From NCBI GenBank assembly GCA_963796275.1, contig CAWCKY010000006.1:128001-192000 (forward strand): a stretch of 64,000 nt of DNA. Direction: 5' to 3'. Below are positions 3,001-42,036 of the stretch, in pieces; the stretch's first letter is position 1, and each line of letters begins with the position of its first letter. The notes beneath the pieces were generated by a model. It was not told the origin of the DNA, searched no databases, and saw only the letters and a list, made by a program, of their open reading frames with translations. The translations under genes were made by a program, and so were the position numbers. The DNA is from an uncultured Acidobacteriota bacterium (lineage in GTDB: Bacteria; Acidobacteriota; Blastocatellia; RBC074).

Positions 3001-4140
3001 AACCTTGAAGCTGAAGCGGAGAAAAAAGGGCGTCTTGGCGGCGTAGACGCGAGGCTGATGAAGCTGATGAACGTCAAGCCTAAGACCGTCAGCATGTCGC
3101 AGGAGAGATTAGTTAAGCTGAGTTACTTAAATTCGGAGCGGATGTTACCTCTGATAGCTCAACCCAGCGTGGAGGATGTTGATTTAGTAACCTGGGCTGG
3201 GTTCAACAAGGGGCTGATCGAAGAACAGTTACTGAAGCATGGCGCGATACTTTTTCGCAACTTCGGGGCCACCTCAATAACTAGATTCGAGCAATTCACC
3301 AGGACAATATCGCCCGAACTAATGCAATACGGCGAACGCTCGTCGCCACGCCACAAGGTGAGCGGCTCGATTTATACGTCGACCGACCACCCAGCCGATC
3401 AGCCCATAGTGCTTCATAACGAGCAATCGTACACGCTGAGCTGGATGATGAAACTTTGGTTCTTCTGCCTTCAGCCGGCGCAAACTGGCGGAGGCACGCC
3501 GATCGCAGACAGCCGTCTGATCTTCAGGCGTTTGAGTCCGAAGCTTGTAGAAAGGTTCGAGGAGAGACAGGTGATGTACCTGCGGAACTATGGCGCCGGC
3601 CTCGGGCTTCCCTGGCAGGAGGTTTTTCAGACCAGCGCAAAGTCGGAAGTGGAAGCGTATTGCAGCCAGGCTGGGATCAGGTACGAATGGTTGGACGGCG
3701 AGCGTCTGAGGACGCGACAGGTTCGCCCGGCGATCAGAAGACACCCGAAGACGGATGAGAAGGTGTGGTTCAACCATGCCCTCTTCTTCCACGTATCGAG
3801 CCTGGAGGCGGCTACTCGCGACTCGCTCCTGTCCGGGTTGGAGGAGGAAGACCTTCCGTTCAACACCTGTTACGGAGATGGCTCTCCCTTTGAAGCCGCG
3901 GCGCTGGGTGAAATTCGCGAAGCGTATCGGCGAGAGACGGTGAGTTTTCCCTGGCAGGCGGGGGACATCCTGATGGTAGACAACATGCTCGTGGCGCATG
4001 GGCGCGAGCCATATACAGGTCAGCGGCAGGTTGTGGTAGCCATGGCGGAGCCATTCAACACTGAGAAGGCGATCGACGCGCGTGTCTCCAACCGACGGCG
4101 GCGATGGCTTGAAACGGCGCGCAGGAGGTATCGAAGATGA
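1..4140 (+). CDS. NRPS, 5'-truncated: A(Val)-T-C(LCL)-TauD/SyrP-like Fe(II)/2-oxoglutarate hydroxylase
   Basis: Frame is open from base 1. A3 YIMYTSGSTGRPKG; code read as DAFWLGGTFK (Val); T FFDLGGHSL; C MHHITSDGWS; C-terminal TauD with LHNEQSY...VAHGREPY (H-x-E...H triad). Confidence 0.93.
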   Translation, partial: AAYLGKLGVGPETPVGFCLERSPEMVVGILGILKAGGTYVPLDPAYPKERLAFMLEDTRTPVILTQQRLIEHLPEHQASVVRIDADWELMTEESEANRASGATAGHLAYIMYTSGSTGRPKGIAIQHRAINRLVFNTNYIEITPEDRMLLASNSAFDAATFELWGALLHGARLVGVSREAVISPRELAASIRDHGISAMWLTAALFNQMTREVPKAFGAVKHLLIGGEALDPHRVREALKNDPPARLVNGYGPTEGTTFTTWYLAQEAAEGASSIPIGRPISNTQTYLLDRNQQPTPIGIAGELYIGGDGLARGYFNRPELTAEKFVPNPYSERPGARLYRTGDLVRYLPDGAIEFLGRLDHQVKIRGFRIELGEIEAALNRHPSVRESIVLLREDAPGEKRLVAYLATESRKAFTVDDLRNFLRQKLPDYMTPAAFVTLDALPLTPNGKIDRRALPAPEQSRPELAEAFVTPRNQVEELLAAAWADALEIERVGVHDNFFDLGGHSLLATKLFSRIRDTFQVELPLAALFEAPTVAALAERIESAKRTVPGSSLPPLTPIVQRGGHLPLSYTQQRLWFLDQLEPGSSAYNIPAAVRLTGALDTEAFARSFHEIVRRHESLRATFVTVNGQPAQLIAPVRPVDLTVTDLGGLTETLRELEAERLADEEMRRSFDLARGPLIRLRLLKLGDEDHIALMTMHHITSDGWSIGILIREFAALYQAFTAGLPSPLPELPIQYSDFAVWQQEWLQGEALKTQLAYWKRQLAGLPILELPTDRPRPPVQTFRGAWQSLFLSAEQADSLKALSRQEGVTLFMTLLAAFKTLLRYYTNQDDIVVGSDIANRTRRETEDLIGFFVNQLVLRTDLSGNPTFRELLGRVREMTLGAFGRQDMPFGKLVEEVQPHRDPSRNPLFQVMFIVQNAPMPELKLTGLTLTPLDVKGETSVFDLTLSFVDAEHGRIRVLCRYNTDLFEPATIRRMLERLEALLNRIVANPEAKLSDLNLEAEAEKKGRLGGVDARLMKLMNVKPKTVSMSQERLVKLSYLNSERMLPLIAQPSVEDVDLVTWAGFNKGLIEEQLLKHGAILFRNFGATSITRFEQFTRTISPELMQYGERSSPRHKVSGSIYTSTDHPADQPIVLHNEQSYTLSWMMKLWFFCLQPAQTGGGTPIADSRLIFRRLSPKLVERFEERQVMYLRNYGAGLGLPWQEVFQTSAKSEVEAYCSQAGIRYEWLDGERLRTRQVRPAIRRHPKTDEKVWFNHALFFHVSSLEAATRDSLLSGLEEEDLPFNTCYGDGSPFEAAALGEIREAYRRETVSFPWQAGDILMVDNMLVAHGREPYTGQRQVVVAMAEPFNTEKAIDARVSNRRRRWLETARRRYRR

Positions 4141-4265
4141 ATACTGGTACGAGTTTTTCTTCATATACACCTTTACACCTTGGCTGAGGACGAACAAGGC
4201 AACGAGATCATACCCATGGCGTAATAGTCAGCAACGTTATGGAAGGCAGGCGATGGAGCAGACAC

Positions 4266-7200
4266 ATGAGCGACTCGATTTTTGAATCCGACAATTTGTA
4301 TCCACTCTCACATGGTCAGCGGGCTTTATGGTTCGTGCAGCGGTTGGCGCCAAATGGCGTGGCTTACAATTTCGCGCATGCGGCCCGAATTCTGACTGAG
4401 TTGGACATCATCGCTTTTCAACGTGCGATCCAGCAGCTGGTGAGGCGCCATCCGGCGCTCAGGACGACCTTTCCCTCTCGTGACGGGGAGCCGGCGCAGC
4501 GGATTCACGATCACGCGGAGTTCCATTTCCGAACGGAGGACGCGACCTGGTGGAGCGAGGCGCAGTTGAACGAGCGCCTGGCCGAGGAGGTCTACCGCCC
4601 ATTCGATCTGGCGCACGGCCCGCTGCTGCGAATCTTCCTGTTCACTCGGTCAGATCGGGAACATGTCGTCCTCCTGGTGACTCATCACATTGTGGCCGAC
4701 CTCTGGTCGGTGGTGGTGGTTATGTCTGAGTTGGGGGCGCTGTATTCGGCGGAAAAGTCCGGCGGCCCCCTGGGTCTTTCCAGTCCGCCAACGCATGACA
4801 TCGATTATGTCCGCCAGCAAGCCGAGTCGATGACCGGCCCGGAGAGCGAACGACTCTGGGCGTTTTGGCGGAAGCAGTTGGCGGGAGCGCCGCCCATGCT
4901 GAATCTGCGGACCGACCGGCCGTGGCCGCCGGTACAAACCGACCGTGGCGCCTCCCGGACTTTGAGGCTAGGCCAGACGGTTTCGCAGGGACTTAAAGTC
5001 CTGGCCAGAACCCACGGGGCCACGCTGTTTATGACTCTGTTGGCCGCCTTTCAGGCACTGCTTCATCGTTACACCGGTCAAGAAGATATTCTGGTTGCCT
5101 CTCCGATGATCAGGAGGGGGCGTGAGGCGGCGAATCTGGTCGGTTATTTCATTAATCCGGTGGTATTGCGTGCGGATTTTTCGGGAGACCCGACATTCTC
5201 TTCCTTCCTCGATCAAGTGCGCCAGACCGCGCTCGAAGCCTTCGAACACAGCGCCTATCCGTTTCCGCTGCTCATTGAGCAATTGCAGCCGGCGCGGGAC
5301 CCTAGCCGGCCGCCGCTCGTTCAGGTCGCTTTTACCTGGCAGCAGACGACTCGCGTGATCAGCAATCAGGCGATGGCTGCATTTGCAGTGGGCGAAAAGG
5401 GAGGAGGGAGGCTGGAGTTGGGGAAGCTTCAGTTTGAATCCATGGCCCTCGAACCCCGGGTCGCTCCGTTCGAGTTGTTGTTGCTGATGGCCGAAGCGAG
5501 TGAAGAGCTGATAGCTACGGTGGAATACAACACCGACCTGTTCGACGGGGAGACGATGGAACGGATGCTGGAACATTTCCAGACTTTGCTGGAGGGAGTT
5601 GTCGCGGACCCGAAACGGCGAATCTCCGACGCCCCACTATTAACGGCGCGGGAGTTATCGCAAGAACTCGTCGAGTGGAATAGGGCCCCGGCCGAATGTA
5701 CTGAGAGTCAATGCGTCCACCAGCGGTTTGCCGAAGTGGCGGGAGAGAATCCGCAGGCCACCGCCCTGGTTAACGAAGAGGAACAGCTCACATACGAGCG
5801 GCTGAACGAGCGGGCCAATCAGTTGGCTCATTACCTGATGAAACGTGGAATCGGCCCGGAAGTATTGGTCGGCATCTGTATGGAGCGCTCAATCGATATG
5901 GCGGTGAGCTTGCTGGGAATCCTCAAAGCGGGTGGGGCATTTCTACCGCTGGACCCGGCATATCCGAGGGAACGACTGGCATACATGATCAAAGATAGCG
6001 GGGCGAGGATGATCCTGACGCGAGGAACAAGTGAAGGAGGAATATGGGAAAGAGAGGAGGAAATGATCCGGCTGGAGAGTGAATGGGAAATGATCGGGCG
6101 GGAAAGCACAGCTAATCCGGAGGCGGGGACGACGCCCGAGAATCTGGCGTATGTGATCTATACCTCGGGGTCGACGGGCCAACCCAAGGGGACGATGCTC
6201 CATCATCGAGGACTGCGCAATCTGATCGAGGGGCAAAGGCGAGGGTTCAATCCGGGAGCGAGCGATCGAATCCTGCAATTCTCATCGCTGAGCTTCGACG
6301 CGTCGGTATGGGAAGTGGTGATGGCGCTGATGGCAGGAGGAAGCCTGGTATTGCCGAGGCGGGAATCGCTGGCAACGGGTCAGGGGCTGGTGGGAACGAT
6401 GAGGGAGCAAGGGATCACGATAGTGACGTTGCCGCCGTCAATGCTGGGAGTGATGCCGGAGGAGGGGCTGCCGGAGTTACACACGATCATCACGGCGGGA
6501 GAGAAATGTCCTGGGGCATTGGCCGGGATTTGGGGGAAGGGGCGGCGATTCTTGAACGCCTACGGCCCGACGGAGACGACGGTATGCGCGTCAATATATG
6601 AGCTGGGGGAGAAGGATGTGATAGGGAGAGAGGGGAGAGGAGCTAACCCCGAAAACCCGCCGATCGGGCGGCCGATCACGAATTTCCAGATATATGTACT
6701 GGACGGGCAAATGAGACCGGCGGCGGTGGGAATAGCTGGGGAGTTGTATATCGGGGGAGTAGGGCTGGGGCGCGGGTATCTGAACCGGCCGGAGCAGACG
6801 GCCGAGAGGTTCATCCCGCATCCGTTCAGTGAGGAAGTGGGGGCGCGATTGTACAAGAGCGGGGATTTGGTGCGACGGCTGAGTGACGGGAATGTGGAAT
6901 ATGTGGGGCGAATCGATCATCAGGTAAAAGTTCGAGGATTTCGCATCGAGTTGGGAGAGATCGAAGCGGTGCTGAGAGGGCGGGAGGAAATACGTGAAGT
7001 GGTTGTGATGGCGAGGGAAGATGCGCCGGGAGAACGGCGACTGGTGGCGTATCTGGCGGTGGGACCTGGGCAATCTCCCCCGATAAACGAACTGCGAAAC
7101 CTGCTGCGGGAACGATTACCAGACTATATGGTGCCGTCGGCATTCGTCACACTGCAATCTTTCCCCTTGACCCCCAGCGGTAAAGTGGATCGCAGTGCGC

Positions 7201-7547
7201 TGCCGCCGCCCGAAAGACCGCGGCCGGAGTTGGAAGCCGGCTACGTGAGGCCCCGGAACGAGATAGAACGGGTCATCGCGGAAGTTTGGCAAAAGGTATT
7301 GGGCATTGAACGTGTGGGCGTCCATGACAACTTTTTCGACCTGGGCGGGCATTCGTTGATGCTGGCCAAGATCCACAGTCAAATGCAGGAAGTCCTCAAC
7401 CGCGAGTTACCCATGATCGAAATGTTCAAATATCCCACCATCAGTGCCCTGGCCGATTATTTGAGCCGGGAAGACGGCGGCCAACCCTCTTTTCAGATGA
7501 GTCGGCAGCGCGCCAGGGAGCAAATGGACGCGATGAATCTCGGGTAG
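4266..7547 (+). CDS. NRPS single module C-A(Phe)-T with an NRPS-to-PKS type C-terminal tail
   Basis: ATG 4266 has GGAG upstream (the track starts at 4239). C motif THHIVADLWS; code DAWTIAAVCK (GrsA-like Phe); T FFDLGGHSL; tail SRQRAREQ. Confidence 0.9.
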   Translation: MSDSIFESDNLYPLSHGQRALWFVQRLAPNGVAYNFAHAARILTELDIIAFQRAIQQLVRRHPALRTTFPSRDGEPAQRIHDHAEFHFRTEDATWWSEAQLNERLAEEVYRPFDLAHGPLLRIFLFTRSDREHVVLLVTHHIVADLWSVVVVMSELGALYSAEKSGGPLGLSSPPTHDIDYVRQQAESMTGPESERLWAFWRKQLAGAPPMLNLRTDRPWPPVQTDRGASRTLRLGQTVSQGLKVLARTHGATLFMTLLAAFQALLHRYTGQEDILVASPMIRRGREAANLVGYFINPVVLRADFSGDPTFSSFLDQVRQTALEAFEHSAYPFPLLIEQLQPARDPSRPPLVQVAFTWQQTTRVISNQAMAAFAVGEKGGGRLELGKLQFESMALEPRVAPFELLLLMAEASEELIATVEYNTDLFDGETMERMLEHFQTLLEGVVADPKRRISDAPLLTARELSQELVEWNRAPAECTESQCVHQRFAEVAGENPQATALVNEEEQLTYERLNERANQLAHYLMKRGIGPEVLVGICMERSIDMAVSLLGILKAGGAFLPLDPAYPRERLAYMIKDSGARMILTRGTSEGGIWEREEEMIRLESEWEMIGRESTANPEAGTTPENLAYVIYTSGSTGQPKGTMLHHRGLRNLIEGQRRGFNPGASDRILQFSSLSFDASVWEVVMALMAGGSLVLPRRESLATGQGLVGTMREQGITIVTLPPSMLGVMPEEGLPELHTIITAGEKCPGALAGIWGKGRRFLNAYGPTETTVCASIYELGEKDVIGREGRGANPENPPIGRPITNFQIYVLDGQMRPAAVGIAGELYIGGVGLGRGYLNRPEQTAERFIPHPFSEEVGARLYKSGDLVRRLSDGNVEYVGRIDHQVKVRGFRIELGEIEAVLRGREEIREVVVMAREDAPGERRLVAYLAVGPGQSPPINELRNLLRERLPDYMVPSAFVTLQSFPLTPSGKVDRSALPPPERPRPELEAGYVRPRNEIERVIAEVWQKVLGIERVGVHDNFFDLGGHSLMLAKIHSQMQEVLNRELPMIEMFKYPTISALADYLSREDGGQPSFQMSRQRAREQMDAMNLG
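5574..7201 (+). repeat. Phe A-domain repeat, copy 1 (near-identical to 58862-60489)
   Basis: Colinear at a constant offset of 53288 with only scattered substitutions (e.g. FDASVW vs FDAAVW). Confidence 0.92.
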
Positions 7548-7575
7548 ATGTATTGGAGTTAAAGGAGCGAATCAG

Positions 7576-10500
7576 ATGAATAGTGAACCAAAAGTTTCCG
7601 ATGCGAGTAACCGACTCGACATCGCCATTATCGGTATCGGTTGCCGTTTTCCGGGAGGCGCCAATAGTCCTGGGGCCTACTGGGAATTGCAGCGGAACGG
7701 CGTGGACGCGATCACCGAGGTTCCGGCTGACCGTTGGGACAGTAAAGCCTTCTATCATCCGGACTCGGGCCGGCCAGGCAAGATCAATTCACGTTGGGGG
7801 GGCTTCATCGAACGAATAGATCATTTTGATGCCCGCTTCTTTGGCATCTCCCCTCGGGAAGCCGCACGCATGGATCCCCAGCAGCGGATGCTGCTGGAGG
7901 TTGCCTGGGAGGCGTTGGAGGACGGCGGCCAGACGCTGGAGCGGTTGGCCGGCACGGGGGTCGGAGTTTTCATCGGCGTTTCGACGATGGACTACCAGGA
8001 GATAACTCGTTGCGTGAGTGATCGCGAATTCATTGATGCTCATACGAACACGGGAGGGGCGATGAGCATCGCCGCGAACCGCATTTCCTACGTTTTCGAT
8101 TTCAGAGGACCGAGTTTTGCCGTGGATACCGCTTGCTCATCGTCGCTGACCGCGGTCCATCTCGCCACCCGAAGTCTGCGGGATGGGGAATGCGAACTCG
8201 CCCTGGTCGGCGGTACAAACGCGCTGATCAAACCTGAAACAACAATGGGTTTCAGCCGGGCCTCCATGCTCTCCCCAGACGGACGCTGCAAGGCTTTCGA
8301 CGCCAGCGCCAATGGTTACACGCGCGGTGAAGGCGCCGGGATGGTCGTCTTAAAGCCTCTGAAAAAGGCATTGGCGGACGGCGACCCGATTTATGCCGTC
8401 ATCCGCGGAACCGCGATCAACGAGGATGGGCACACCAGCGGGATCACGGTTCCCGGTCGCCAGGCGCAGGAGGCGATGCTCCGGCAAGCGTACCGACAGG
8501 CCGGAGTGGTGCCAAGCGACGTGCAGTACGTCGAGGCGCACGGGACAGGCACGCCGGTGGGCGATCCAATAGAGGCGCAAGCCCTGGGCGCGGTGCTGGG
8601 CCAGGGGCGTCCTCCCGGTGATCATTGCGTAATCGGTTCGGTCAAAACCAACATCGGACACCTCGAAGCCGGCGCAGGCATCGCCGGATTGATCAAGGTC
8701 GCGCTGATGATGAGGCATCGAGCGATCCCGCCGACCCTGCACTTCCGGGATCCGAATCCAAACATCCCCTTCGAAGAGCTCCGATTGCGGGTTCCACGAA
8801 CGCTCGAACCGTGGCCCGACGGAAAGGGACTGGCCCGGGCGGGCGTAAATTCCTTCGGTTTCGGCGGGGCCAACGCGCACGTGGTCTTGGAAGAAGCTCC
8901 CCAAGAAGATCGAGGATCGGGGATTGAGGATCGAAGATCGCAATCCGCAATCCTCGATCAATCCTCGATCCACAATCCGCAGTCTGCCTATCTTCTGCCG
9001 CTGTCCGCTCGCAGTCCCGAGGCGCTTCGGGCCGTCGCGCAAGCGTACCAGAGTTTTCTGGCCGGCGATGGCGCTGGGACGCCCCTTTCTGACTTGTGCT
9101 ATTCCGCCAGTCTGCGGCGAAGCCACCACGACTACCGATTGGCGCTGGTTGGCCGCTCTCACGAAGAGTTGGCTGGAAGTCTGGCGGCGTTTCTGGCCGG
9201 AGAGACTCGTCACGGGCTCTCATCCGGCCATCCCGTTTTCGGCCATCGTCCCAGGATCGTCTTCGTCTTCTCCGGCATGGGGCCGCAGTGGTGGGCGATG
9301 GGACGGCAGATGCTGGAGCAGGAACCCGTCTTTCGGGAGGCTATAGAACGGTGTGACGAGTTGCTCCGGCGACACGCGAAATGGTCTTTGCTCGAAGAGC
9401 TGTTGGCCGATGAATCCCAATCACGAATGAGCGAAGCGGAGATCGCTCAACCGGCGAATTTCGCGCTCCAGGTCGCGCTCGCCGCCCTGTGGCGTTCCTG
9501 GGGGATTGAGCCGGATGCGATTATCGGCCATAGCGCGGGAGAAGTGGCGGCCATTCACGTGGCAGGGGTGATGAATCTGGAAGAGGCGGTCCGTGTCATC
9601 TTCCATCGCAGCCGATTGCAACAGCGGGCGACCGGGAAAGGGAAGATGGCGGCTGTCAGCCTGTCGTTGGCGGAGGCTGGGCGCGCAATCGAGGGATATG
9701 AAGATCGCGTCTCGATTGCAGCCATCAACAGCCCCATGTCAGTCACTTTGTCCGGCGACGCTGATGCTATCGAGGAGATTGTCCGAACTTTAGAGCTGAG
9801 GCAGGTCTTTTCTCGCATCTTGCAGGTAGAGGTCCCTTATCACAGCCGTCACATGGAGCCTTTCAAGGACGAGTTATCGCAGTCCTTGCGCGATTTGGAA
9901 CTACGGCCCGCTTCGATCCCTCTCTATTCCACTGTTAGCGGCCTGTGCATAGGGCTCGCCGATAGCCGGGAGTTGGACGCGGAATACTGGTGGCGCAATG
10001 TCAGGAACCCCGTTCGCTTCGCGGAAGCGATGGACCGGCTCATTCAAGACGGGCATAACGTTTTCGTCGAATTAAGCCCCCACCCCGTCCTTGCCGGCTC
10101 GATCTCTCAATGCTTGATGCAGAGCGGACAAAAGGGAACCATCCTTCCTTCGCTGCGTCGCCAGGAAGCGGAACGGGAGCAGATGTTAGGGTCTCTCGGC
10201 GTGCTCCACACGCTGGGCAATAAGGTGGAGTGGGAGAGACTATATCCCGAGGGCGGGCGATTCGTCAGGCTGCCGTCCTACCCCTGGCAACACGAGCGTT
10301 ATTGGCAAGAGTCCGAAGTGGCGGAACAGAGCAGACTGGGACGACAGATCCACCCGCTGTTGGGCCGCCGGATGGCTTCGGCCCACCCGTCGTGGGAACT
10401 CGATCTGGATATGCAACACCTGCCATATCTGGGCGACCATCGGGTGCAGGGGACCGTCACCTATCCCGGAGCGGCATACGTGGAATCGGCGCTGGCCGTC

Positions 10501-13500
10501 GCCAGGGAAGTCTTCGGAGACGGGCTTTGCGCGATAAAAGAGATAGAGTTTCAAAAAGCGCTTTTCCTGACTGAAGGCGAAACGACGAAGCTCCAGATGG
10601 TCTTCGATCCAGGAGCGGCCGCTTTCGAGGTCTTCAGCCGGATTAAAGACACCAAGCAGGCTGCCAGACAACCGTGGATTCGCCATTCGGCTGGCAAGCT
10701 ACTCCAGGAGCCCGGCGCCGCTCAACCGGTCGCGCCCTTTTCTATAGATAAGATTCGAAGTCGCTGCGACAAGGATTTCTCAGACATTTGCTATTCCGCT
10801 TTTCGGGGATTCGGCCTCGACTTCGGCCCGTCTTTTCAGGGGATCGAGCGGCTCTGGCGCGGAGACAGTGAAGCGCTGGCGCTGATACAAGTCCCTGAAT
10901 CGGTAGCCGAAGACATTCAGGGCTACCAACTCCACCCGACCCTGATCGACGCCTGCTTCCAATCGCTGCTCGCCTTTTTGCTTGCCGAAGGGGCGGATAA
11001 CAACCGGAAAGGCCCGCTCTATCTCCCCGTGTGGATAGAGCGGCTTCGGGTCTACGGCCGCCACGGCTCTAAACTGTGGAGCTATGCCCGTCTGATTGAG
11101 CTAACCGACGTCGGTCTGGAGGGAGATGTTTGGCTGCTTGACGAAGCCGGAAATGTCTTGATCGAGATACAGGGCTTCCGTCTCCAGGCTCTGGAAGCGG
11201 CGCGGTCCAGCGCTTCAGAGTCTATGACAGACTGGTTGTATGAGTTCGAATGGCAACTTGATCGGCCGGAAGCGCGAATCGGGGAACTGATCTCCTCAAC
11301 ACAGGAGATGCCGGGAAGCTGGATGATCTTCGCGGACAGCGGCGGCGTCGGAGAGAAACTGGCGGAGTTGCTGGCGGCGCGCGGCCAGAAGCCGATTTTG
11401 ATCACCGCGGCAAAATCCTATCGTCGCATCAGTGAGGATCGCTTCCAGCTATGCCCGGAACGAGTGGATGACATCCACCAGCTGTTTGAGGCCGTGTGCG
11501 CCGATGAGCCGGGCGGAGCAAACCGCGCTGGCGGAGCCGGCTGTCGCGGCGTGATACATCTCTGGAGTTTGGATACCGCTCCGCCCGAGGTATTGACGCA
11601 CATCTCGCTGGAGGCGGCGCAGAATCTCGGATGTGGGGCCGCGCTGCGCCTGGTTCAGGAGCTGGCCAAACGCCAATGGACAAATGCTCCCCGCCTCTGG
11701 CTAGTGACGCGTGGCGCGAACACGGTCAGGGCCGGCATTGAGCCAGCCTCGGTCGCTCAATCCCCGCTGTGGGGGCTCGGAAGAGTGATCATCAACGAGC
11801 ACCCGAACCTGCGCTGCCGGATGGTCGATTTGTGCCCGCCTGGCCGAATGGACTCCTCACAAGAGATTCAACTGCTCTTCGACGAGTTGTGGATGGACGA
11901 CCATGAAGAAGAGGTCGCTTTTCGGGATGGCATGCGCTACGTCCACAGGATGAACAAAATGGCGGCCAAAGTCTCCGAAGCTGAGTCGCAGGAAAGATTC
12001 AAAGCCGGGGATGATCAACCTTTCCGCCTGGAGATTTCAGAGCCAAGGCTCCTGGACGCCTTGACACTGCGTGCGACACGGCGTGAGGCGCCAGGCCCCG
12101 GAGAAGTTGAAATTAAAGTACACGCGGCTGGTCTCAACTTCATGGATGTAATGAAGGCGGTAGGCATCTATCCTGCCGAAGACTTCAGCGAAACGACCTG
12201 GCTCGGCAGCGAATGCGCTGGCACGGTCGTTGCCGTGGGAGAAGGCGTGAGCGAATTTCGCCTCGGAGACGAAGTCATAGCGGTGGCTAGCGGTTGCTTC
12301 AGCGCCTTCGTCAAGACCGACGCCAATCTGGTAGTCCGCAAAACATCTCATCTCAGCTTTGAGGAAGCAGCGACGATTCCGATTGTTTTCCTGACGGCTT
12401 ATTACGCGCTCAGTCATCTGGCGCGACTGCGGAAAGGCGAGCGAGTGCTTATTCACGCCGCTGCCGGGGGCGTCGGCCTGGCCGCCATCCAATACGCCCA
12501 ATACATCGGCGCGGAGGTCTTCGCCACGGCGGGAAGCCCCGAAAAACGTGAGCTGCTGCGATCTCTGGGGGTGCGGTGGGTGATGGATTCACGATCCCTT
12601 GATTTCGCCGATGAGGTAATGGAGATCACCGGCGGAACGGGCGTGGATGTCGTCTTGAACTCTTTAATCGGAGAGGCCATCCCAAAGAGCCTCTCGGTTC
12701 TGGGCGCCTACGGGCGTTTCCTGGAGATCGGCAAACGCGATATTTATCAGAACAGCAAGTTGGGGCTCCGGCCTTTCCGAAACAACCTGTCGTATTTCGC
12801 CATTGACATATCTCGGCTATGTTTCAGAACGCCTGAAGTGGCCGGCAAATTTTTCCGCGAGCTGATGCATTATTTCGAGGACGGAACTCTCCGCTCCGTC
12901 CCGTATCAACCCTTCTCTATTTCAGATGCCGTGAGCGCCTTCCGCTACATGGCCCAGGCGAAACACACGGGAAAGATCGTGCTGTCGCTGCAAGGCCAGG
13001 AGGTGTGGGTGGCGCCCGCCGTCCATCAGGAGGAAGGGCAGGTTCTCCCGTTCCGTTCCGATGGGACGTATCTCATCACAGGAGGCTTGGGCGGGTTCGG
13101 CTTGGCAATCGCCCGGTGGATGGTTGAGCGAGGAGCGCGGCATCTGGTCTTGATGGGAAGAAGCGGGGCGTCGTCTCGCGAAGCGGAGACAGCCCTGGAG
13201 GCAATGGAACAAGCCGGCGCCGAGGTCGTCGTCGCCCGGACGGATGTCAGTAAGGAGCGGCAGTTGGCCGAGGTTCTCGACAACATACATAGATTCATGC
13301 CGCCGTTGAGGGGCATCGTCCACGCGGCGATGGTTATTGACGATGGCTATCTGTTCCAACTCGATGAGGAGCGCTTCAAGAAAGTAATGGCGCCCAAAGC
13401 CGTGGGCGCCTGGAATCTGCACACCCAGACCTTGACCTGCCCGTTGGATTTCTTTGTGCTTTTCTCCTCGGTCACGTCACTGATCGGGAATCCGGGGCAG

Positions 13501-14226
13501 GCGAACTACTGCGCCGCAAACGCCTTTTTGGACGCTCTGGCGCACTACCGCCGGTCCCTGAACCTTCCTGCCCTGACCATCAATTGGGGCGCCATCGGTG
13601 AAGTCGGATACCTCGCCCGGCATGGTGAGGTCAGTGAGCAGCTGGAGCGGCAGGGACTGGCGCCATTATCCATCGCAGACGCCACAGAGATGCTGGAACA
13701 TCTGCTGCAACGGAACCCGGCTCAGGCGGGCGTGATCAACATTGACTGGCAAAAGTGGGGCCGGTTTATGCCTGAGGCGGCCGCCTCGCCGCGGTTTTCT
13801 CATCTGATTCGCACAAACGGAGATCAGCAGGCAATGGACGATCAGGGAGAAATCGGCGGTTCGCTCCTCAACTTGATCCTCGCCGCAAAACCGGAAGAGC
13901 GCCAGCAAGCGCTGGCGATGCGGTTGTGCGAGCAGGTGGCGAGAGTGCTGGGAGCCGCGGTGGCTGAGCTGGATACCGAGCAGCCTCTGACCAGCTTTGG
14001 ACTCGATTCGATTATGGCGGTCGAGATGAGCCATTGGATCGGAAATGAATTGAAGATGGACTTGCCGACCATAGCCCTCATCCGGACCCCGAATCTCTCC
14101 CACCTCGCGGGGCAGATCCTCGACCAACTGGACGCCCGATCAACCGCGACCTCCGCCTCTAACTTGGCGGCTGCGAGCGAGACGGCGGATGTTGGAAATC
14201 TAACGGCGGGCACGGCGGTGGGGTAG
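7576..14226 (+). CDS. Type I PKS single module KS-AT-DH-ER-KR-ACP (fully reducing)
   Basis: KS VDTACSSSL, EAHGTGT, NIGHLE; AT GHSAG with VPYHS; DH DHRVQGTVTYPG and LIDACFQ; ER LIHAAAGGVG; KR TGGLGGFG, VIDD, QANYCAAN; ACP FGLDSIMA. Confidence 0.95.
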   Translation: MNSEPKVSDASNRLDIAIIGIGCRFPGGANSPGAYWELQRNGVDAITEVPADRWDSKAFYHPDSGRPGKINSRWGGFIERIDHFDARFFGISPREAARMDPQQRMLLEVAWEALEDGGQTLERLAGTGVGVFIGVSTMDYQEITRCVSDREFIDAHTNTGGAMSIAANRISYVFDFRGPSFAVDTACSSSLTAVHLATRSLRDGECELALVGGTNALIKPETTMGFSRASMLSPDGRCKAFDASANGYTRGEGAGMVVLKPLKKALADGDPIYAVIRGTAINEDGHTSGITVPGRQAQEAMLRQAYRQAGVVPSDVQYVEAHGTGTPVGDPIEAQALGAVLGQGRPPGDHCVIGSVKTNIGHLEAGAGIAGLIKVALMMRHRAIPPTLHFRDPNPNIPFEELRLRVPRTLEPWPDGKGLARAGVNSFGFGGANAHVVLEEAPQEDRGSGIEDRRSQSAILDQSSIHNPQSAYLLPLSARSPEALRAVAQAYQSFLAGDGAGTPLSDLCYSASLRRSHHDYRLALVGRSHEELAGSLAAFLAGETRHGLSSGHPVFGHRPRIVFVFSGMGPQWWAMGRQMLEQEPVFREAIERCDELLRRHAKWSLLEELLADESQSRMSEAEIAQPANFALQVALAALWRSWGIEPDAIIGHSAGEVAAIHVAGVMNLEEAVRVIFHRSRLQQRATGKGKMAAVSLSLAEAGRAIEGYEDRVSIAAINSPMSVTLSGDADAIEEIVRTLELRQVFSRILQVEVPYHSRHMEPFKDELSQSLRDLELRPASIPLYSTVSGLCIGLADSRELDAEYWWRNVRNPVRFAEAMDRLIQDGHNVFVELSPHPVLAGSISQCLMQSGQKGTILPSLRRQEAEREQMLGSLGVLHTLGNKVEWERLYPEGGRFVRLPSYPWQHERYWQESEVAEQSRLGRQIHPLLGRRMASAHPSWELDLDMQHLPYLGDHRVQGTVTYPGAAYVESALAVAREVFGDGLCAIKEIEFQKALFLTEGETTKLQMVFDPGAAAFEVFSRIKDTKQAARQPWIRHSAGKLLQEPGAAQPVAPFSIDKIRSRCDKDFSDICYSAFRGFGLDFGPSFQGIERLWRGDSEALALIQVPESVAEDIQGYQLHPTLIDACFQSLLAFLLAEGADNNRKGPLYLPVWIERLRVYGRHGSKLWSYARLIELTDVGLEGDVWLLDEAGNVLIEIQGFRLQALEAARSSASESMTDWLYEFEWQLDRPEARIGELISSTQEMPGSWMIFADSGGVGEKLAELLAARGQKPILITAAKSYRRISEDRFQLCPERVDDIHQLFEAVCADEPGGANRAGGAGCRGVIHLWSLDTAPPEVLTHISLEAAQNLGCGAALRLVQELAKRQWTNAPRLWLVTRGANTVRAGIEPASVAQSPLWGLGRVIINEHPNLRCRMVDLCPPGRMDSSQEIQLLFDELWMDDHEEEVAFRDGMRYVHRMNKMAAKVSEAESQERFKAGDDQPFRLEISEPRLLDALTLRATRREAPGPGEVEIKVHAAGLNFMDVMKAVGIYPAEDFSETTWLGSECAGTVVAVGEGVSEFRLGDEVIAVASGCFSAFVKTDANLVVRKTSHLSFEEAATIPIVFLTAYYALSHLARLRKGERVLIHAAAGGVGLAAIQYAQYIGAEVFATAGSPEKRELLRSLGVRWVMDSRSLDFADEVMEITGGTGVDVVLNSLIGEAIPKSLSVLGAYGRFLEIGKRDIYQNSKLGLRPFRNNLSYFAIDISRLCFRTPEVAGKFFRELMHYFEDGTLRSVPYQPFSISDAVSAFRYMAQAKHTGKIVLSLQGQEVWVAPAVHQEEGQVLPFRSDGTYLITGGLGGFGLAIARWMVERGARHLVLMGRSGASSREAETALEAMEQAGAEVVVARTDVSKERQLAEVLDNIHRFMPPLRGIVHAAMVIDDGYLFQLDEERFKKVMAPKAVGAWNLHTQTLTCPLDFFVLFSSVTSLIGNPGQANYCAANAFLDALAHYRRSLNLPALTINWGAIGEVGYLARHGEVSEQLERQGLAPLSIADATEMLEHLLQRNPAQAGVINIDWQKWGRFMPEAAASPRFSHLIRTNGDQQAMDDQGEIGGSLLNLILAAKPEERQQALAMRLCEQVARVLGAAVAELDTEQPLTSFGLDSIMAVEMSHWIGNELKMDLPTIALIRTPNLSHLAGQILDQLDARSTATSASNLAAASETADVGNLTAGTAVG
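8905..8986. repeat. Heptamer tandem/inverted repeat (GAGGATC-type then CAATCCG/CAATCCT) translated in frame in the KS-AT linker
   Basis: gaagatc gaggatc ggggatt gaggatc gaagatc, then caatccg caatcct cgat caatcct cgatcca caatccg; encodes EDRGSGIEDRRSQSAILDQSSIHNPQS. Confidence 0.85.
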
Positions 14227-14231
14227 TGCGT

Positions 14232-14315
14232 AGTTTTAAGTTTTCAGTTTTAAGTTTTCAGTTTCGGTTCGGTGACCTCGACCGAAAACTAAAAACTTAA
14301 AACCAAAAACTTAAA
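14232..14315. repeat. Intergenic heptamer hairpin (AGTTTTA/C x4 ... AAAACT-type x4); may act as a terminator or RNA-stabilising stem
   Basis: agtttta agttttc agtttta agttttc agtttcggttcggt...accgaaaact aaaaact taaaacc aaaaact taaa, immediately after the PKS stop codon. Confidence 0.85.
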
Positions 14316-14335
14316 TCTATTTTCGGAGGAATGTC

Positions 14336-14941
14336 ATGGAGATAGTTATCAAACCGGCGATCAACAACGAAGAGCGCGACTCGATGTTCCGCGTACGGCA
14401 GGAAGTCTTCGAGCGCGAATGGGGGATCGGGCTCGCGCAATTGCGGGCTTATAACGAGACCGCCTTACATTTACTCGCCCTGGTCGAGCCTGGCGAATAT
14501 CCGGTCGCGGCGCTCACCGTGGTGGACACAAGCGGCGATCAACAGCTCCACGAGAGCTACCGTTTGGGCTTCGCACCGCACACTCGCGCGGCGCGCTATA
14601 CCCAACTCGCCGTGCTCAAGCCTTATCGCGGGATGGACGTCCCGGTGCGGATGATCCTCGAAGCGCATCACCGCTTCGTCGTCCCCGGCCGGTTCGATTA
14701 CACCTGGCTGTTATTCGACGCACGGCACGCCGCGTCGTCGTCGCTCTGCCAGTGGCTCGCTTTTTCCGCGAGCGAGCAAGCTTTCGCGTCCGAATACGGC
14801 TTCAGCCGCTCGTTGGTAAGAGACGAGCGCACGCAGCGCTGCAAACGAGCCATCCGGCGAGTAGAGCGGTATTTTGGGCAGAGCGCGTGGCCTTTATTGC
14901 TTGCGAAATCGCAGCGCGAGCAGGTCGGATCATCTAGATAA
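14336..14941 (+). CDS. GNAT-fold acyltransferase-like protein (FeeM/acyl-ACP-dependent N-acyltransferase-like)
   Basis: GGAGG RBS; N-terminal FRVRQEVFERE and motif-A-like TQLAVLKPYRG. The family assignment rests on motif resemblance only. Confidence 0.65.
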   Translation: MEIVIKPAINNEERDSMFRVRQEVFEREWGIGLAQLRAYNETALHLLALVEPGEYPVAALTVVDTSGDQQLHESYRLGFAPHTRAARYTQLAVLKPYRGMDVPVRMILEAHHRFVVPGRFDYTWLLFDARHAASSSLCQWLAFSASEQAFASEYGFSRSLVRDERTQRCKRAIRRVERYFGQSAWPLLLAKSQREQVGSSR

Positions 14942-14966
14942 CTGTTAAAGAAAGAGAAACAAGGAA

Positions 14967-17900
14967 ATGCAGCGGGAGATCATCAACGGATTCCGGCTTT
15001 CACCGCAACAAAGGCGGCTGTGGTTATTGCAGCAAGGGAGCTCCGCCTATTGCGCTCAATCCGCCATTCTGATTGAAGGCGGCCTCAGACCGGAGGTTTT
15101 AAAGGAAGCGGTGTATCGAATCGTCAGGCGGCACGAGATCCTCCGCACGACTTTTCACAGTCTGCCAGGCATGAAGCTGCCGGTTCAGGTGGTGGCTGAA
15201 GAGAGCTCGCCTTCGTCTCTCCCATTGTGGTGGGACGACGACCTGAGCGATCGGAGCGCGGCGGAACAGGCGGAGAAGATTGAGGAGCTTTCCCGGGAAT
15301 ATCTCTGCCACCCATTTGATTTGGGTCAGGGCCTGCTCCTGCGCGCGTTTTTGCTGAGGGTTTCGGTTGAGAGACATATTCTCTTTCTCAGCCTGCCTTC
15401 AATTTGCGCCGATGCCCGGACGCTCAAAAATCTGGCTATTGAAATCGGCCTGTCTTATCAAGCTTATTTGATGGATGAGGCGCTATCCGGCGAGCCGATA
15501 CAATATGCGCAATTCTCCGATTGGCAGAATGACTTGCTCGAGGACGAGGATGCCGAGGCGGGCAGGGAGTTCTGGCGCAAGCAAACTCTCGCGGCGCCGC
15601 CGGCTGTTGCGCTTCCGTTTGAAAACGAGCGCGCGGGGCAAAATGGCTTTGAGCCGGACTCTTTTATGTTGGCGCTGGATCGGGGGATAGTGGCCGGTCT
15701 CGAGACCGTCGCCGAAAGACAAGGCGTCTCGACCGATGTCTTCTTACTGGCCTGCTGGCAGACGTTGTTGTGGCGACTGACGGCGCAATCCCGCATCGTC
15801 ATTGGTTACGCCCACGATGGCCGACGGCACGAGATATTGCAGGGCGGCCTCGGATTGTTCGCCAGATGGTTGCCGATCGGCTCCCGCTTCGGGGCGAATC
15901 TTCGGTTCAGCGAGGTCTTGTCTCAGATCGCAGCCTCCAAACGGGCAGCTGACGAATGGCAGGAATATTTCGTCTGGGACGATGCCCTGGCCTCGGAGGT
16001 TTTAAGGGATGACACGCCGCCGTTCTTTCCCATCGGATTCGAGTTTGAAGAACGCTGGTCGCCGCATCTGGCCGGCGGCCTGTTATTTTCAATCCACCGA
16101 CAGAGTAGTTGTGCGGAACGGTTTCACATCAAGCTCTCCTGCCACCGGACGGGCGATCTGCTCATGGCGGAGGTTCATTTCGATCGCGAACGGTTTCGCC
16201 GCGCGGATATCGAACGCCTGGCAGGCCAATTCTACGCACTGTTGTCGTGCGCCGTCGAGCGCGTCGAGACGCCCATCTGCGCATTGGAGATGCTGAGCGA
16301 CGCGGATCGCCATCAGTTGCTGGTCGCGTTCAACGATACGAACGCCGATTATCCCAAAGACCAATGCGTTCACCAGCTTTTCGAGGAGCAGGCTCAGCGT
16401 ACTCCGGGAAACCTCGCGGTGGTCTTCTCTGAATCGTTCGGGCCGGAACCGGAACAGCGATTGACTTACGCCGAACTCAACGCCCGAGCCAATCAGTTGG
16501 CCCGTTACCTGCGGCGAATGGGAGTGAGGCCGGAAGCGATTGTCGGCCTTTGCCTGGAGCGTTCGGTGGAAGCGGTGGTGGGTATCTTGGGTATTCTGAA
16601 AGCGGGCGCCGCCTACCTTCCCTTGGACCCGGCCCTTCCACAAGAACGACTGGCGTTCATGTTGGCGGAGACGCAGGCGGTGGCGCTGCTGACTCAGGAG
16701 CGATTGGTCGAAAGAATGGGGGATGGGGATTGGGAAGCGAAGACTCAGAGCCAGACATTCCGCATTCCATATTTCGCATTCGGCACTCGGGTGGTTTGCC
16801 TGGATGTGGATTGGGAGAACATCGCGCAGGAGAGCGAAGAGAATTTGGCCAGTGAGGCGACCGCCCGGGACCTGGCTTATGTGATCTATACCTCCGGCTC
16901 CACGGGAGAGCCGAAAGGGGTGATGATCGAGCATCGCTCGGTCGTGAATCTGGCCAATGGCCTCATGCGGACTGTTTACGCCGGTCAAGGCTCGCCTCTG
17001 CGGGTGAGTCTCAACGCGCCGTTGACCTTCGACGCGTCGGTCAAGCAACTGCTGCAATTGCTCTACGGCCACACGCTATGCATATTGCCGGAAGAAGTCC
17101 GGCTCGACGGGAAAGAACTGTTCTCCTATCTGAATCGCCACTCGCTCGATGCGCTCGATTGTACGCCAGCCCAGTTGCAGCTTTTGCTGGGGGCCGGATT
17201 TGGCACTCGCCCGGATGCGGCTACGAAGTTGGCGCTGGTGGGCGGAGAGGCGATTGACGACGCGACTTGGGGATCACTGGTCGAGAAGGGCGAGACGAAT
17301 TTCCATAACGTCTATGGTCCGACTGAATGCACGGTAGACGCCACGGTGTGCAGTGTGCGAGAGGCGGCGGAGCCTGTGATCGGACGGCCCATCGCAAACG
17401 CGAAAATTTTTCTGCTTGACGAACGCCTCAATCCCGTTCCCCTTGGTGTTCCCGGCGAGTTGCACATCGGCGGCGATGGGCTGGCCCGCGGTTATCTCAA
17501 TCGAGCGAATTTGACGGCCGAGAAGTTCATTCCGAACCCGTTCAACGCAGAGCCGGGCGCGCGCCTCTATAAGACGGGCGATCTGGCCAGCTACCTGCCC
17601 GATGGGATGATCAAGTTTCTCGGCCGCACGGATCATCAGGTGAAGCTCCGCGGCTTTCGCATCGAATTGGGGGAGATTGAAGCGGCGTTGAAGAGGGCCC
17701 CGGACGTGCGGGACGGCGTGGTCGTAGTCCGAGAGGACACACCCGGCGATAAACGCCTGGTCGCTTATGTCGTCCAGGCCCGGGGGCGTGCATTATCTAT
17801 CGGCGAGTTGAGAGATTTCCTCAAAGAAAAGCTGCCAGAGTACATGATCCCTTCGGCTTTTGTCCGGCTAAATGATCTGCCTTTGACGCGACACGGGAAA

Positions 17901-18272
17901 GTAGACCGCCAGTCGCTGCCTGCTCCCGAAAGCGATCGCCCGGAGTTGCGCGCGTCTTATGTGGCGCCCAAGACCAGCATCGAAGGAACCATCGCCGCTA
18001 TCTGGCAGGAGGTGTTGCGGGTCGAGAAGGTCGGAGTAAACGACAACTTCTTCGATCTAGGCGGCCATTCATTACTGATGGTTCAGGTTCACAGCAAGCT
18101 TCGCGAAGCTTTCAGCAAGGAGATTTCTCTGATCGAGATGTTCAGAAACGCTACTGTTGGCTCACTCGCCCGGTACTTTGCCGGGGAGGGAGACCAGCAA
18201 CCCTTGCTTCAGAAGGCTCATGACCGCGCTCAAAAGCGGAGAAGGGCGCGGGGTAGGCAGACGCAGATTTAA
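14967..18272 (+). CDS. NRPS: interface (I, non-catalytic C-like) domain-A(Glu)-T
   Basis: N-terminus GFRLSPQQRRLW; SLPSICADART replaces HHxxxDG; code DAKDLGVVDK (SrfA-A1-type Glu); T FFDLGGHSL; basic tail DRAQKRRRAR. Confidence 0.9.
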   Translation: MQREIINGFRLSPQQRRLWLLQQGSSAYCAQSAILIEGGLRPEVLKEAVYRIVRRHEILRTTFHSLPGMKLPVQVVAEESSPSSLPLWWDDDLSDRSAAEQAEKIEELSREYLCHPFDLGQGLLLRAFLLRVSVERHILFLSLPSICADARTLKNLAIEIGLSYQAYLMDEALSGEPIQYAQFSDWQNDLLEDEDAEAGREFWRKQTLAAPPAVALPFENERAGQNGFEPDSFMLALDRGIVAGLETVAERQGVSTDVFLLACWQTLLWRLTAQSRIVIGYAHDGRRHEILQGGLGLFARWLPIGSRFGANLRFSEVLSQIAASKRAADEWQEYFVWDDALASEVLRDDTPPFFPIGFEFEERWSPHLAGGLLFSIHRQSSCAERFHIKLSCHRTGDLLMAEVHFDRERFRRADIERLAGQFYALLSCAVERVETPICALEMLSDADRHQLLVAFNDTNADYPKDQCVHQLFEEQAQRTPGNLAVVFSESFGPEPEQRLTYAELNARANQLARYLRRMGVRPEAIVGLCLERSVEAVVGILGILKAGAAYLPLDPALPQERLAFMLAETQAVALLTQERLVERMGDGDWEAKTQSQTFRIPYFAFGTRVVCLDVDWENIAQESEENLASEATARDLAYVIYTSGSTGEPKGVMIEHRSVVNLANGLMRTVYAGQGSPLRVSLNAPLTFDASVKQLLQLLYGHTLCILPEEVRLDGKELFSYLNRHSLDALDCTPAQLQLLLGAGFGTRPDAATKLALVGGEAIDDATWGSLVEKGETNFHNVYGPTECTVDATVCSVREAAEPVIGRPIANAKIFLLDERLNPVPLGVPGELHIGGDGLARGYLNRANLTAEKFIPNPFNAEPGARLYKTGDLASYLPDGMIKFLGRTDHQVKLRGFRIELGEIEAALKRAPDVRDGVVVVREDTPGDKRLVAYVVQARGRALSIGELRDFLKEKLPEYMIPSAFVRLNDLPLTRHGKVDRQSLPAPESDRPELRASYVAPKTSIEGTIAAIWQEVLRVEKVGVNDNFFDLGGHSLLMVQVHSKLREAFSKEISLIEMFRNATVGSLARYFAGEGDQQPLLQKAHDRAQKRRRARGRQTQI
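16716..16790. repeat. Heptamer inverted-repeat insertion in frame inside the Glu A domain
   Basis: atggg ggatggg gattggg ... cattccg cattcca tatttcg cattcgg; encodes MGDGDWEAKTQSQTFRIPYFAFGTR between LLTQERLVER and VVCLD. Confidence 0.8.
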
Positions 18273-18532: not shown

Positions 18533-18569
18533 CGATCTTCAATCATTGATCTCGGAGGAAGGAAGAACG

Positions 18570-25947: not shown

Positions 25948-25980
25948 CCGAACAATTTTTGCCTGACCGCTTAGGTGAGT

Positions 25981-31900: not shown

Positions 31901-32045
31901 GTGCCTGGAAACGCTGGCCGAAGCCGACCGCCGCCGCCGGGGCATGAAAGAGGAAGAATTCAAAGCTGTCAGCCGTCAGAAATTGCGAAATATCAGGCGG
32001 AAAACGATGGACAGCACCCAATCGAGTAATGGTGATGAAAGGTAA
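25981..32045 (+). CDS. NRPS C(DCL)-A(Asn)-T-E-C(DCL); one apparent frameshift near 30350 joins track ORFs 25975..30561 and 30402..32045
   Basis: YPLSPLQQGMLFH and YHHLLLDGWS (DCL); code DATKIGEVGK (Asn); T GGDSI; E HHLAIDG/LEGHGRE/RTVGWFT. Adding one G at 30350-30352 restores SPRGSRRYPLEIN, which aligns with the paralogous E domains. Terminal C YHHLLLDGWS. Confidence 0.88.
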
Positions 32046-32052
32046 AGCATAT

Positions 32053-38757: not shown

Positions 38758-38812
38758 CGGAAGAGGAAATTCTGCAAACCAACAACCTGGAGCAAGAAGG
38801 AGGAGAAAGACT

Positions 38813-39829: not shown

Positions 39830-39915
39830 GGCCTGGGTAAGGGCCGTAGAAATTGGAAATGGGAGAAAAACTTTTTCCATTTCGCGGTCCGCTGAAGGTT
39901 GGGGTGAAGAAAATT

Positions 39916-41948: not shown

Positions 41949-42036
41949 TTGGCTTCTTTGGAAAGCCCATAGAAGATCAGTCGGTCTGGTGGCGAAAGCA
42001 GCGCGAACTAACAGTTCGCCAAACATCAAGGTAGTT

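Follow-up and report, generated by a model that had tools for sequence, protein, structure and literature searches.

We analysed a stretch of 64,000 nucleotides (hereafter the window; G000:C6:128001-192000) from the genome of a soil acidobacterium. The analysis centers on two of its genes: ORF1, an open reading frame (ORF) of a nonribosomal peptide synthetase (NRPS) that ends in a TauD-type dioxygenase, and ORF5, an NRPS module with a glutamate specificity code whose first domain is of the interface type. The genome comprises 9.46 Mb in 7 contigs with a G+C content of 54.5%, and the window lies inside one cluster of NRPS and polyketide synthase (PKS) genes of ~110 kb in which every gene is on the + strand. 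Its first gene, KS-AT-KR-ACP, lies ~6.4 kb upstream of the window, and its last ones, MacB/FtsX, MFS and MbtH-like genes, ~40 kb downstream of it. We write C for condensation, A for adenylation, T for carrier, I for interface, KS for ketosynthase and E for epimerization domains; the domain content of the window ORFs was taken from Pfam, and coordinates are collected in Table 1.

The C-TauD protein and the glutamate-coded module

The whole frame of ORF1 encodes 1940 aa, starts ~1.6 kb upstream of the window and has the architecture C-A-T-C-TauD, with the Val code DAFWLGGTFK in its A domain. In the window part of ORF1, Pfam places a Condensation match at aa 566-1009 and a TauD match at aa 1056-1346. 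The iron triad of the TauD domain, H-x-E...H (HNE and AHGR), is invariant across an alignment of eight TauD domains (alignment A1). In the TauD superfamily a retained carboxylate ligand speaks for a hydroxylase rather than a halogenase, and because this carboxylate is kept we read the ORF1 domain as a hydroxylase. Comparisons with characterized proteins gave little on its substrate. The nearest chains in the PDB, At3g21360 (1y0z) and the TauD/TfdA protein 9yut (E ~1e-34), are uninformative in this respect, NCBIfam returned weak partial matches only, and a homologue search with 7059 matches at E<=1e-10 among 8000 scored contained no characterized protein among the 120 matches listed, all of which bear generic names.

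ORF5 opens with a domain homologous to NRPS condensation domains (PF00668 over aa 10-452, a weak match of 205 bits), whose nearest solved chains are the C domains of Txo1 and Txo2; NCBIfam matched it with generic NRPS models only. Its HHxxxDG motif has lost the catalytic His, a loss that is reportedly a feature of I domains (Reitz et al. 2019). The domain stands directly N-terminal to an A domain, and in the window itself three genes separate ORF5 from the C-TauD gene.

From an alignment of the cluster's 17 A domains we took nine pocket positions in PheA numbering, with the A domain of ORF2 as reference because its A4-A5 spacing equals that of GrsA-PheA. The pocket of ORF5 reads DAKDLGVVDK, presumably the Glu code of the Stachelhaus table, and this is the code that a first-pass annotation of this DNA had given the I-A-T gene at 14967 in place of an Asp code. 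The same register yields canonical codes in other A domains, such as DLTKVGHVGK, DILQLGLIWK, DFWNIGMVHK and DAFWLGGTFK. Along the cluster the codes are those for Val in ORF1, Phe in ORF2, Asn at 27376, Asp at 33502 and 44532, and Thr, Ile, Gly and Phe further on. Because the other A domains yield codes that we recognize in this way, we treated the register as valid.

Table 1. Positions of the genes and domains discussed, in window coordinates
Feature	Position	Strand	Basis or motif	Remark
ORF1, 3' part	1..4140	+	Pfam, specificity code	5' end open at window edge
Terminal catalytic C domain of ORF1	1696..3027	+	HHITSDGWS, LCL-like	Proposed in-trans condensation onto the Glu module
TauD/TfdA-type Fe(II)/2-oxoglutarate dioxygenase domain, behind C of ORF1	3166..4038	+	PF02668, 166.9 bits	Proposed glutamyl-S-T hydroxylase
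ORF2, C(HHIVADLWS)-A(Phe code DAWTIAAVCK)-T	4239..7547	+	Pfam, code, motif	Part of three-gene insert
ORF3, fully reducing PKS module KS-AT-DH-ER-KR-ACP	7576..14226	+	Orthologues only in G020 and G006	Part of insert
ORF4, 201 aa	14336..14941	+		Part of insert
ORF5, I-A(Glu)-T module	14967..18272	+	Pfam; orthologues	
Interface-type non-catalytic C-like domain of ORF5	14994..16322	+	LPSICAD replaces HHxxxDG	
A domain of ORF5, code DAKDLGVVDK	16380..17900	+	A4 motif FDASVKQ from 17028	
T (carrier) domain of ORF5	17988..18176	+	GGHSL	
ORF6, KS-AT-KR-DH-ACP-(E-like with HN)	18546..25808	+	Kept behind the Glu module in relatives	PKS module proposed to extend the (hydroxy)glutamyl thioester
I-A(Asp, DLTKVGHVGK)-T-C	32029..36906	+		Terminal C domain ahead of gene
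Stand-alone TauD	41869..43089	+		Ends 33 nt ahead of the I-A(Asp) gene (43122)
I-A(Asp, DLTKVGHVGK)-T-C...	43122..47480	+		Stand-alone TauD ahead of gene

Conservation of the proposed pairing and the TauD clade

To place ORF1 and ORF5 in context we searched 60 relatives for orthologues of ORF5 and annotated the contigs that carried them, using the window's own domains as queries. Orthologues were found in three relatives, at 76% (G020), 75% (G006, partial) and 63% (G014) identity. G020 and G006 share the order of the window: C-TauD, C-A(Phe)-T, PKS, a homologue of ORF4, and I-A-T. The arrangement in G014, a metagenome-assembled genome (MAG) of Acidobacteriota, is simpler: on its contig C53 (locus L024) a C-A-T-C-TauD gene is followed by 1.8 kb without a synthetase gene, then by I-A(DAKDLGVVDK)-T and a KS gene. 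The TauD domain of this locus is 76% identical to that of ORF1. Both G020 and G014 carry orthologues of ORF0, ORF1, ORF5 and ORF6, and the pocket code of ORF5 is identical in the two; the partial G006 sequence reads DAKD at its contig end.

Orthologues of ORF2-ORF4 are confined to G020 and G006; this three-gene cassette, which separates the C-TauD gene from its I module, is a lineage-specific addition. ORF4 gave no Pfam or NCBIfam match; in a language-model protein atlas it lies near GNAT / FeeM-like N-acyl amino acid synthase clusters (scores 0.94-0.97), which is a lead only. Its homologues in G020 and G006 are 73-76% identical to it, and G014 has none. ORF2 was considered as the partner module of the C-TauD and rejected, because its N-terminal C domain keeps HHxxxD and scores as an ordinary C domain, not as an I domain, and because the gene is missing at that place in G014.

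The same juxtaposition extends beyond these three relatives. Besides G014, eight acidobacterial loci have a C-TauD gene directly before a Glu I module, and a ninth has it there after a 2.9-kb gap. The code of the A domain upstream of the C-TauD varies, being Val in the window, Thr in G020 and G014, DAWFLGNVVK in five loci, and DAWFLGVIVK and DVWHISLVDQ in one each, whereas the downstream Glu code is constant.

We then surveyed TauD domains more widely, searching one genome per species with alignment A1, which gave 79 loci with 97 TauD domains. An I-type domain follows 84 of the 97, at a median gap of 49.5 nt; eight run off their locus, and five differ, one of these (L023) being the G006 orthologue of the window with the same insert. 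Fusion in frame to a C domain occurs in 36 of the 97, and 75 of the 97 have a C domain ending <=600 nt upstream. The second His of HHxxxDG is kept in none of 82 I-type domains at these loci versus 180 of 187 ordinary C domains. Outside the Acidobacteriota, the nearest relatives of the window TauDs are cyanobacterial, at 52-58% identity.

Sorted by A-domain code, the 84 partner modules comprise 39 of Asp type, 10 with the Glu-type code DAKDLG[VL]VD, 6 with the Gln-type code DAWQ[FY]GLID, 9 with DS[AV]LIAEVW, which we take to be a His code, 7 with SSRD[LV]AMGI and 2 with other codes; 11 were unreadable. Judged from these codes, the substrate range of the TauD/I pairing seems much wider than the Asp and His classes described so far. 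The non-Asp codes come from loci L041-L095 of cyanobacteria and Acidobacteriota, where DAKNFGLANK and DPWYIGSIA also occur; the SSRD[LV]AMGI code has no acidic residue at position 235.

In phylogenies of the TauD domains, ORF1 groups with domains whose readable partners are Glu-coded. In a quick tree of 102 rows its TauD falls in a clade of 13 rows with a Shimodaira-Hasegawa-like likelihood ratio support (SH-aLRT) of 97, composed of 8 Glu-partnered domains, 4 with unread partners and the query. A more careful tree (LG+G4, 81 rows) omitted rows >=88% identical to a kept row, the very long row L034_18236 and rows <250 aa, and recovered the clade with bootstrap 100 / SH-aLRT 97 and 11 rows: 6 Glu-partnered, 4 unread and the query. 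Read by hand, the four unread partners gave DAKDLGVVD in L049 and DAK before a truncation in L025; L023 is the G006 orthologue, and L097 stayed unreadable. The clade contains no TauD with an Asp-, His-, Gln- or SSRD-coded partner.

In all nine clade loci where it is readable, the gene after I-A(Glu)-T starts with a KS. The hand-on to a PKS, proposed in the first-pass annotation along with the pairing of the fused TauD and the Glu module, is thus supported across the clade, and the pairing itself is supported by the synteny in G014 and the other loci and by the Glu-only clade. The PKS gene in the window, ORF6, carries a DH-like domain after its KR, which is unusual, and ends in a C-superfamily domain (24282-25805) that is E-like (TIGR01720), with HN replacing HH. 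This layout, with the DH after the KR and the terminal E-like domain, is also kept in G020 and G014. In the window the E-like domain adjoins the N-terminal C domain of the next gene, which is of the kind seen after E domains in the cluster.

Other interface modules and competing explanations

Four more domains of the cluster have the LPSICAD motif with small variations, two in the window (32107 and 43143) and two beyond its end (~66217 and ~78449). In the window, a terminal C domain at ~30618-31935 is followed by the I domain at 32107 (gene 32029, Asp), and one at ~35452-36769 by tailoring genes and then the I domain at 43143 (gene 43122, Asp); both modules read DLTKVGHVGK, as expected from the earlier claim that each of the two other terminal C domains lies upstream of an Asp module. 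Outside the window, a terminal C domain at 64200 precedes the I domain at 66217 (Asp I module at ~66200), and the C domain of a free-standing C-TauD protein at ~73400 precedes that at 78449. Because each other I module of the cluster has its own upstream catalytic terminal C domain, the terminal C of ORF1 is left for ORF5, just ahead of which lie the ACP-ending PKS gene ORF3 and ORF4.

This argument had first been made by elimination among three terminal C domains. In that form it was incomplete, since the cluster exceeds the window and holds five I modules and three TauDs; redone for the whole cluster, with the two outside I modules checked as alternative partners, it still assigns the C-TauD of ORF1 to ORF5. 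The inventory of the window also needed correction, as ORF6 too ends in a C-superfamily domain, the C domain of ORF2 is not an I domain, and there is an additional, stand-alone TauD at 41869.

This stand-alone TauD groups (support 99) as sister of a TauD ahead of an I-A(Asp) module (L064), on another contig of the MAG that holds the G014 cluster. It is likely the Asp hydroxylase of the cluster: only 33 nt separate it from an Asp I module, and its sister is an Asp-partnered TauD, so that the Asp modules have a candidate enzyme of their own. Its first ~55-100 aa match nothing in relatives and overlap the preceding gene (41869-42036). Because this extension is unmatched in relatives, it is probably an artefact of ORF calling, with the true start near 42037.

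The best-surviving alternative, which we nonetheless regard as unlikely, is that the TauD of ORF1 hydroxylates the Asp I modules, alone or together with the stand-alone TauD, while the I domain of ORF5 only docks a trans-acting C domain and its Glu stays unmodified. In its favor, the cluster has five I modules but only three TauDs, the Asp I modules at 32029 and ~66200 have no adjoining TauD, and the TauD of ORF1 is 55% identical to the stand-alone TauD ahead of an Asp module; moreover, Asp and His are the substrates of the families described in PMC12971057. Against this, the readable partners in ORF1's clade are Glu-coded only and none is Asp-coded, a TauD of the clade precedes a Glu module in G014 and nine other loci, and the cluster already holds an Asp-type TauD.

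An alternative that we consider improbable concerns the substrate rather than the pairing: the A domain of ORF5 could load Gln, 2-aminoadipate or a substituted Glu instead of L-Glu. Specificity codes are predictions, and we found no assayed acidobacterial A domain with DAKDLGVVDK in the literature searched; yet all 10 positions, including Lys at position 239, match the canonical code for Glu, and the code is conserved in orthologues that are only 61-74% identical overall. That the TauD would instead act on a neighbor in gene order, Val on ORF1's own T domain in cis or Phe on ORF2, which lies directly downstream where the partner is found in 84 of the 97 surveyed cases, is highly improbable. 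ORF2 has a His-bearing C domain and is absent there in G014, and the orthologues of the ORF1 module carry differing codes (Val, Thr, Leu-like and Ser-like) next to a conserved TauD clade.

Several observations weigh against the pairing of ORF1 with ORF5 as a substrate-defined one. Two Glu-partnered TauDs (L088 and L096) fall outside ORF1's clade, and a clean distinction between the clade and Asp-partnered TauDs is seen in no more than two columns of the alignment, with H versus Y/F at aa 1130 of ORF1 and R versus A/T at aa 1246. The Glu-clade loci are all from Acidobacteriota with a common flanking PKS and probably represent one family of related clusters, so the clade may reflect descent of the whole cluster and not substrate. 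In the window the C-TauD gene and the I module are 10.8 kb apart, and strict collinearity is broken because the gene directly after the C-TauD starts with a His-bearing C domain. The excess of I modules over TauDs implies that at least one TauD serves more than one module or that some I modules go unhydroxylated. A complex prediction for the I domain of ORF5 with the TauD of ORF1 scored 0.00 in two runs and counts neither way.

The remainder of the cluster has features of its own. The free-standing C-TauD protein (L002:9377-11803; window coordinates ~73377-75803), the second C-TauD protein of the cluster, lacks a T domain. In the tree its TauD joins (support 99) fused TauDs of cyanobacteria whose partner modules lie past the flanks retrieved. 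It is followed by an ORF of 331 aa that belongs to no known family, and then by an I-A-T-C gene with the code DFWHFGQVDK (L002:14338-18651; ~78338-82651). Kinship of ORF4 with this 331-aa ORF, which likewise stands ahead of a C-TauD-associated I module, was considered and rejected, as the two proved unrelated on comparison. The A domains of the Asp I modules have a ~40-aa insertion between N-terminal core motifs (~33900-34010, ~44930-45040 and, outside the window, ~86600), which splits their match to the A domain of ORF5.

A tailoring cassette at window positions 36943-41948, flanked by the two Asp I modules, encodes a carbamoyltransferase, an Asp/Orn carbamoyltransferase-like protein, a PALP enzyme and an ornithine cyclodeaminase-like protein. 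The last two resemble the SbnA/SbnB pair that makes 2,3-diaminopropionate, which suggests that this cassette supplies a (carbamoylated) diamino acid building block. A 522-aa protein with Ig-like / DUF1573-type repeats is encoded amid the synthetase genes (L002:6838-8403; ~70838-72403). Synthetase frames break mid-domain and resume in another frame at 30402-30561, 47480-47497 and 49094-49230, with one C domain divided between 43122-47480 and 47497-49230. The G020 counterpart of 25975-32045 is a single frame and its ORF2 counterpart is split; these breaks may be either assembly indels or real frameshifts.

Genome-wide, 7 of 55 C-superfamily domains are of the His-less I type, five in the window's cluster and two in a separate one on contig C4, and the five NRPS-type TauDs are divided three and two between the same clusters. 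The C4 cluster is small (G000:C4:17627-39813, minus strand; L005 and L006) and encodes a stand-alone TauD, then a divergent I-like (LPRLSVD)-A(Gln-type DAWQYGLIDK)-T-C-TauD, then I-A(DLTKVGEVGK). It thus holds two consecutive TauD/I pairs, one apparently on a Gln-coded module.

Proposed mechanism and relation to known hydroxylases

Together, synteny, partner codes and phylogeny make it very likely that the fused C-TauD of ORF1 is paired with the Glu interface module ORF5, and we infer glutamate to be the hydroxylation substrate. A fuller mechanism, which we hold with somewhat less assurance but still think probable, is that the ORF1 C-TauD and the ORF5 I-A-T form one functional module. The A domain of ORF5 would load L-Glu onto its T domain, and the His-less interface domain would serve as the docking platform for the C-TauD didomain. 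The TauD would then hydroxylate Glu-S-T; analogy with the family makes C-3 the most likely position. The upstream chain would be joined to the ORF5-bound residue by the catalytic C domain of ORF1, and the KS of ORF6 would take the product for one polyketide extension.

Two routes can be imagined for ORF2-ORF4. They could be skipped in a hand-over from ORF1 to ORF5, as the first-pass annotation proposed, or the C domain of ORF2 could take the chain from the T domain of ORF1, with the terminal C of ORF1 accepting it back from the ACP of ORF3. What makes the second route conceivable is that free-standing C-TauD proteins that lack a T domain exist, one of them in this cluster and others in six of the surveyed loci (L033, L050, L068, L075, L087 and L100).

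Reitz et al. (2019, PNAS) reportedly described IBH_Asp, an interface-associated aspartyl beta-hydroxylase that works with an interface (I) domain in siderophore NRPSs; the system is also treated in PMC12971057, PMC12230676 and PMC10212144. As in IBH_Asp, the TauD of ORF1 is fused behind a terminal C domain and its partner starts with a His-less C-like domain directly before the A domain; in relatives of the window the partner gene follows the C-TauD gene at once. Unlike in IBH_Asp, where the partner loads Asp, the partner A domain here and that of every readable clade member is Glu-coded (DAKDLGVVDK). The acidobacterial host, the very large NRPS-PKS hybrid and the three genes between hydroxylase and partner set the locus further apart, going by the description of IBH_Asp. 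KtzO and KtzP of kutzneride biosynthesis, reported by Strieker et al. (2009, JACS), are reportedly non-heme iron enzymes that form beta-hydroxy-Glu on carrier-bound Glu, and we take them to be stand-alone proteins without an interface-domain partner. The TauD of ORF1 would, like them, make hydroxy-Glu on a carrier, but compared by description alone it differs in being fused behind a C domain and linked to an I domain.

The partnership of interface domain and beta-hydroxylase is described for Asp and His in siderophores, with two cyanobacterial Asp classes (CyanoBH_Asp1 and CyanoBH_Asp2, from cyanochelin clusters) and 'several unreported clades' (PMC12971057). Interface-domain profiles are included in antiSMASH 8 (PMC12230676). 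Many cyanobacterial relatives of the window TauDs, with Nostoc loci among those surveyed, have the layout [C-TauD][I-A-T][KS...], but the cyanobacterial partner codes are Asp-type, DLTK[IV]G[EH]VGK. The hydroxylase tree of PMC12971057 may already contain the Glu clade. We found no interface-type Glu hydroxylase and no product of these clusters in the literature, which is weak evidence of absence because most subscription journals lay outside the search; nor did the literature searched contain a characterized peptide product from uncultured Pyrinomonadaceae or Ca. Angelobacter.

What appears to be new is the predicted Glu partner of an interface-type fused hydroxylase, conserved in at least ten acidobacterial clusters in which each module would feed a PKS. 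Judged from sequence, the Glu clade would be part of a wider and mostly undescribed spread of the TauD/I pairing to Gln-, His-like and other codes. A tentative and rather doubtful extension is that C-TauD is a portable, trans-acting unit for condensation and hydroxylation that any I-A-T module could recruit through its interface domain, with clades specialized not only for Asp but also for Glu, Gln, His-like and further residues. The ORF2-ORF4 cassette would then have been inserted between the unit and its I module, and the ACP of ORF3 would be the donor for the C domain of ORF1. If so, trans docking would have enabled a natural module insertion, and the product would contain beta-hydroxy-Glu together with as many as three residues of beta-hydroxy-Asp, which might act as metal ligands.

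The TauD of ORF1 and ORF5 provide a concrete enzyme-substrate pair for testing, open a way into the chemistry of Pyrinomonadaceae and Ca. Angelobacter that have not been cultured, and point to a genome-mining rule in which the code of the partner A domain predicts the hydroxylated residue. If confirmed, the pairing would widen the substrate range of docking-based tailoring to glutamate, which could help NRPS engineering.

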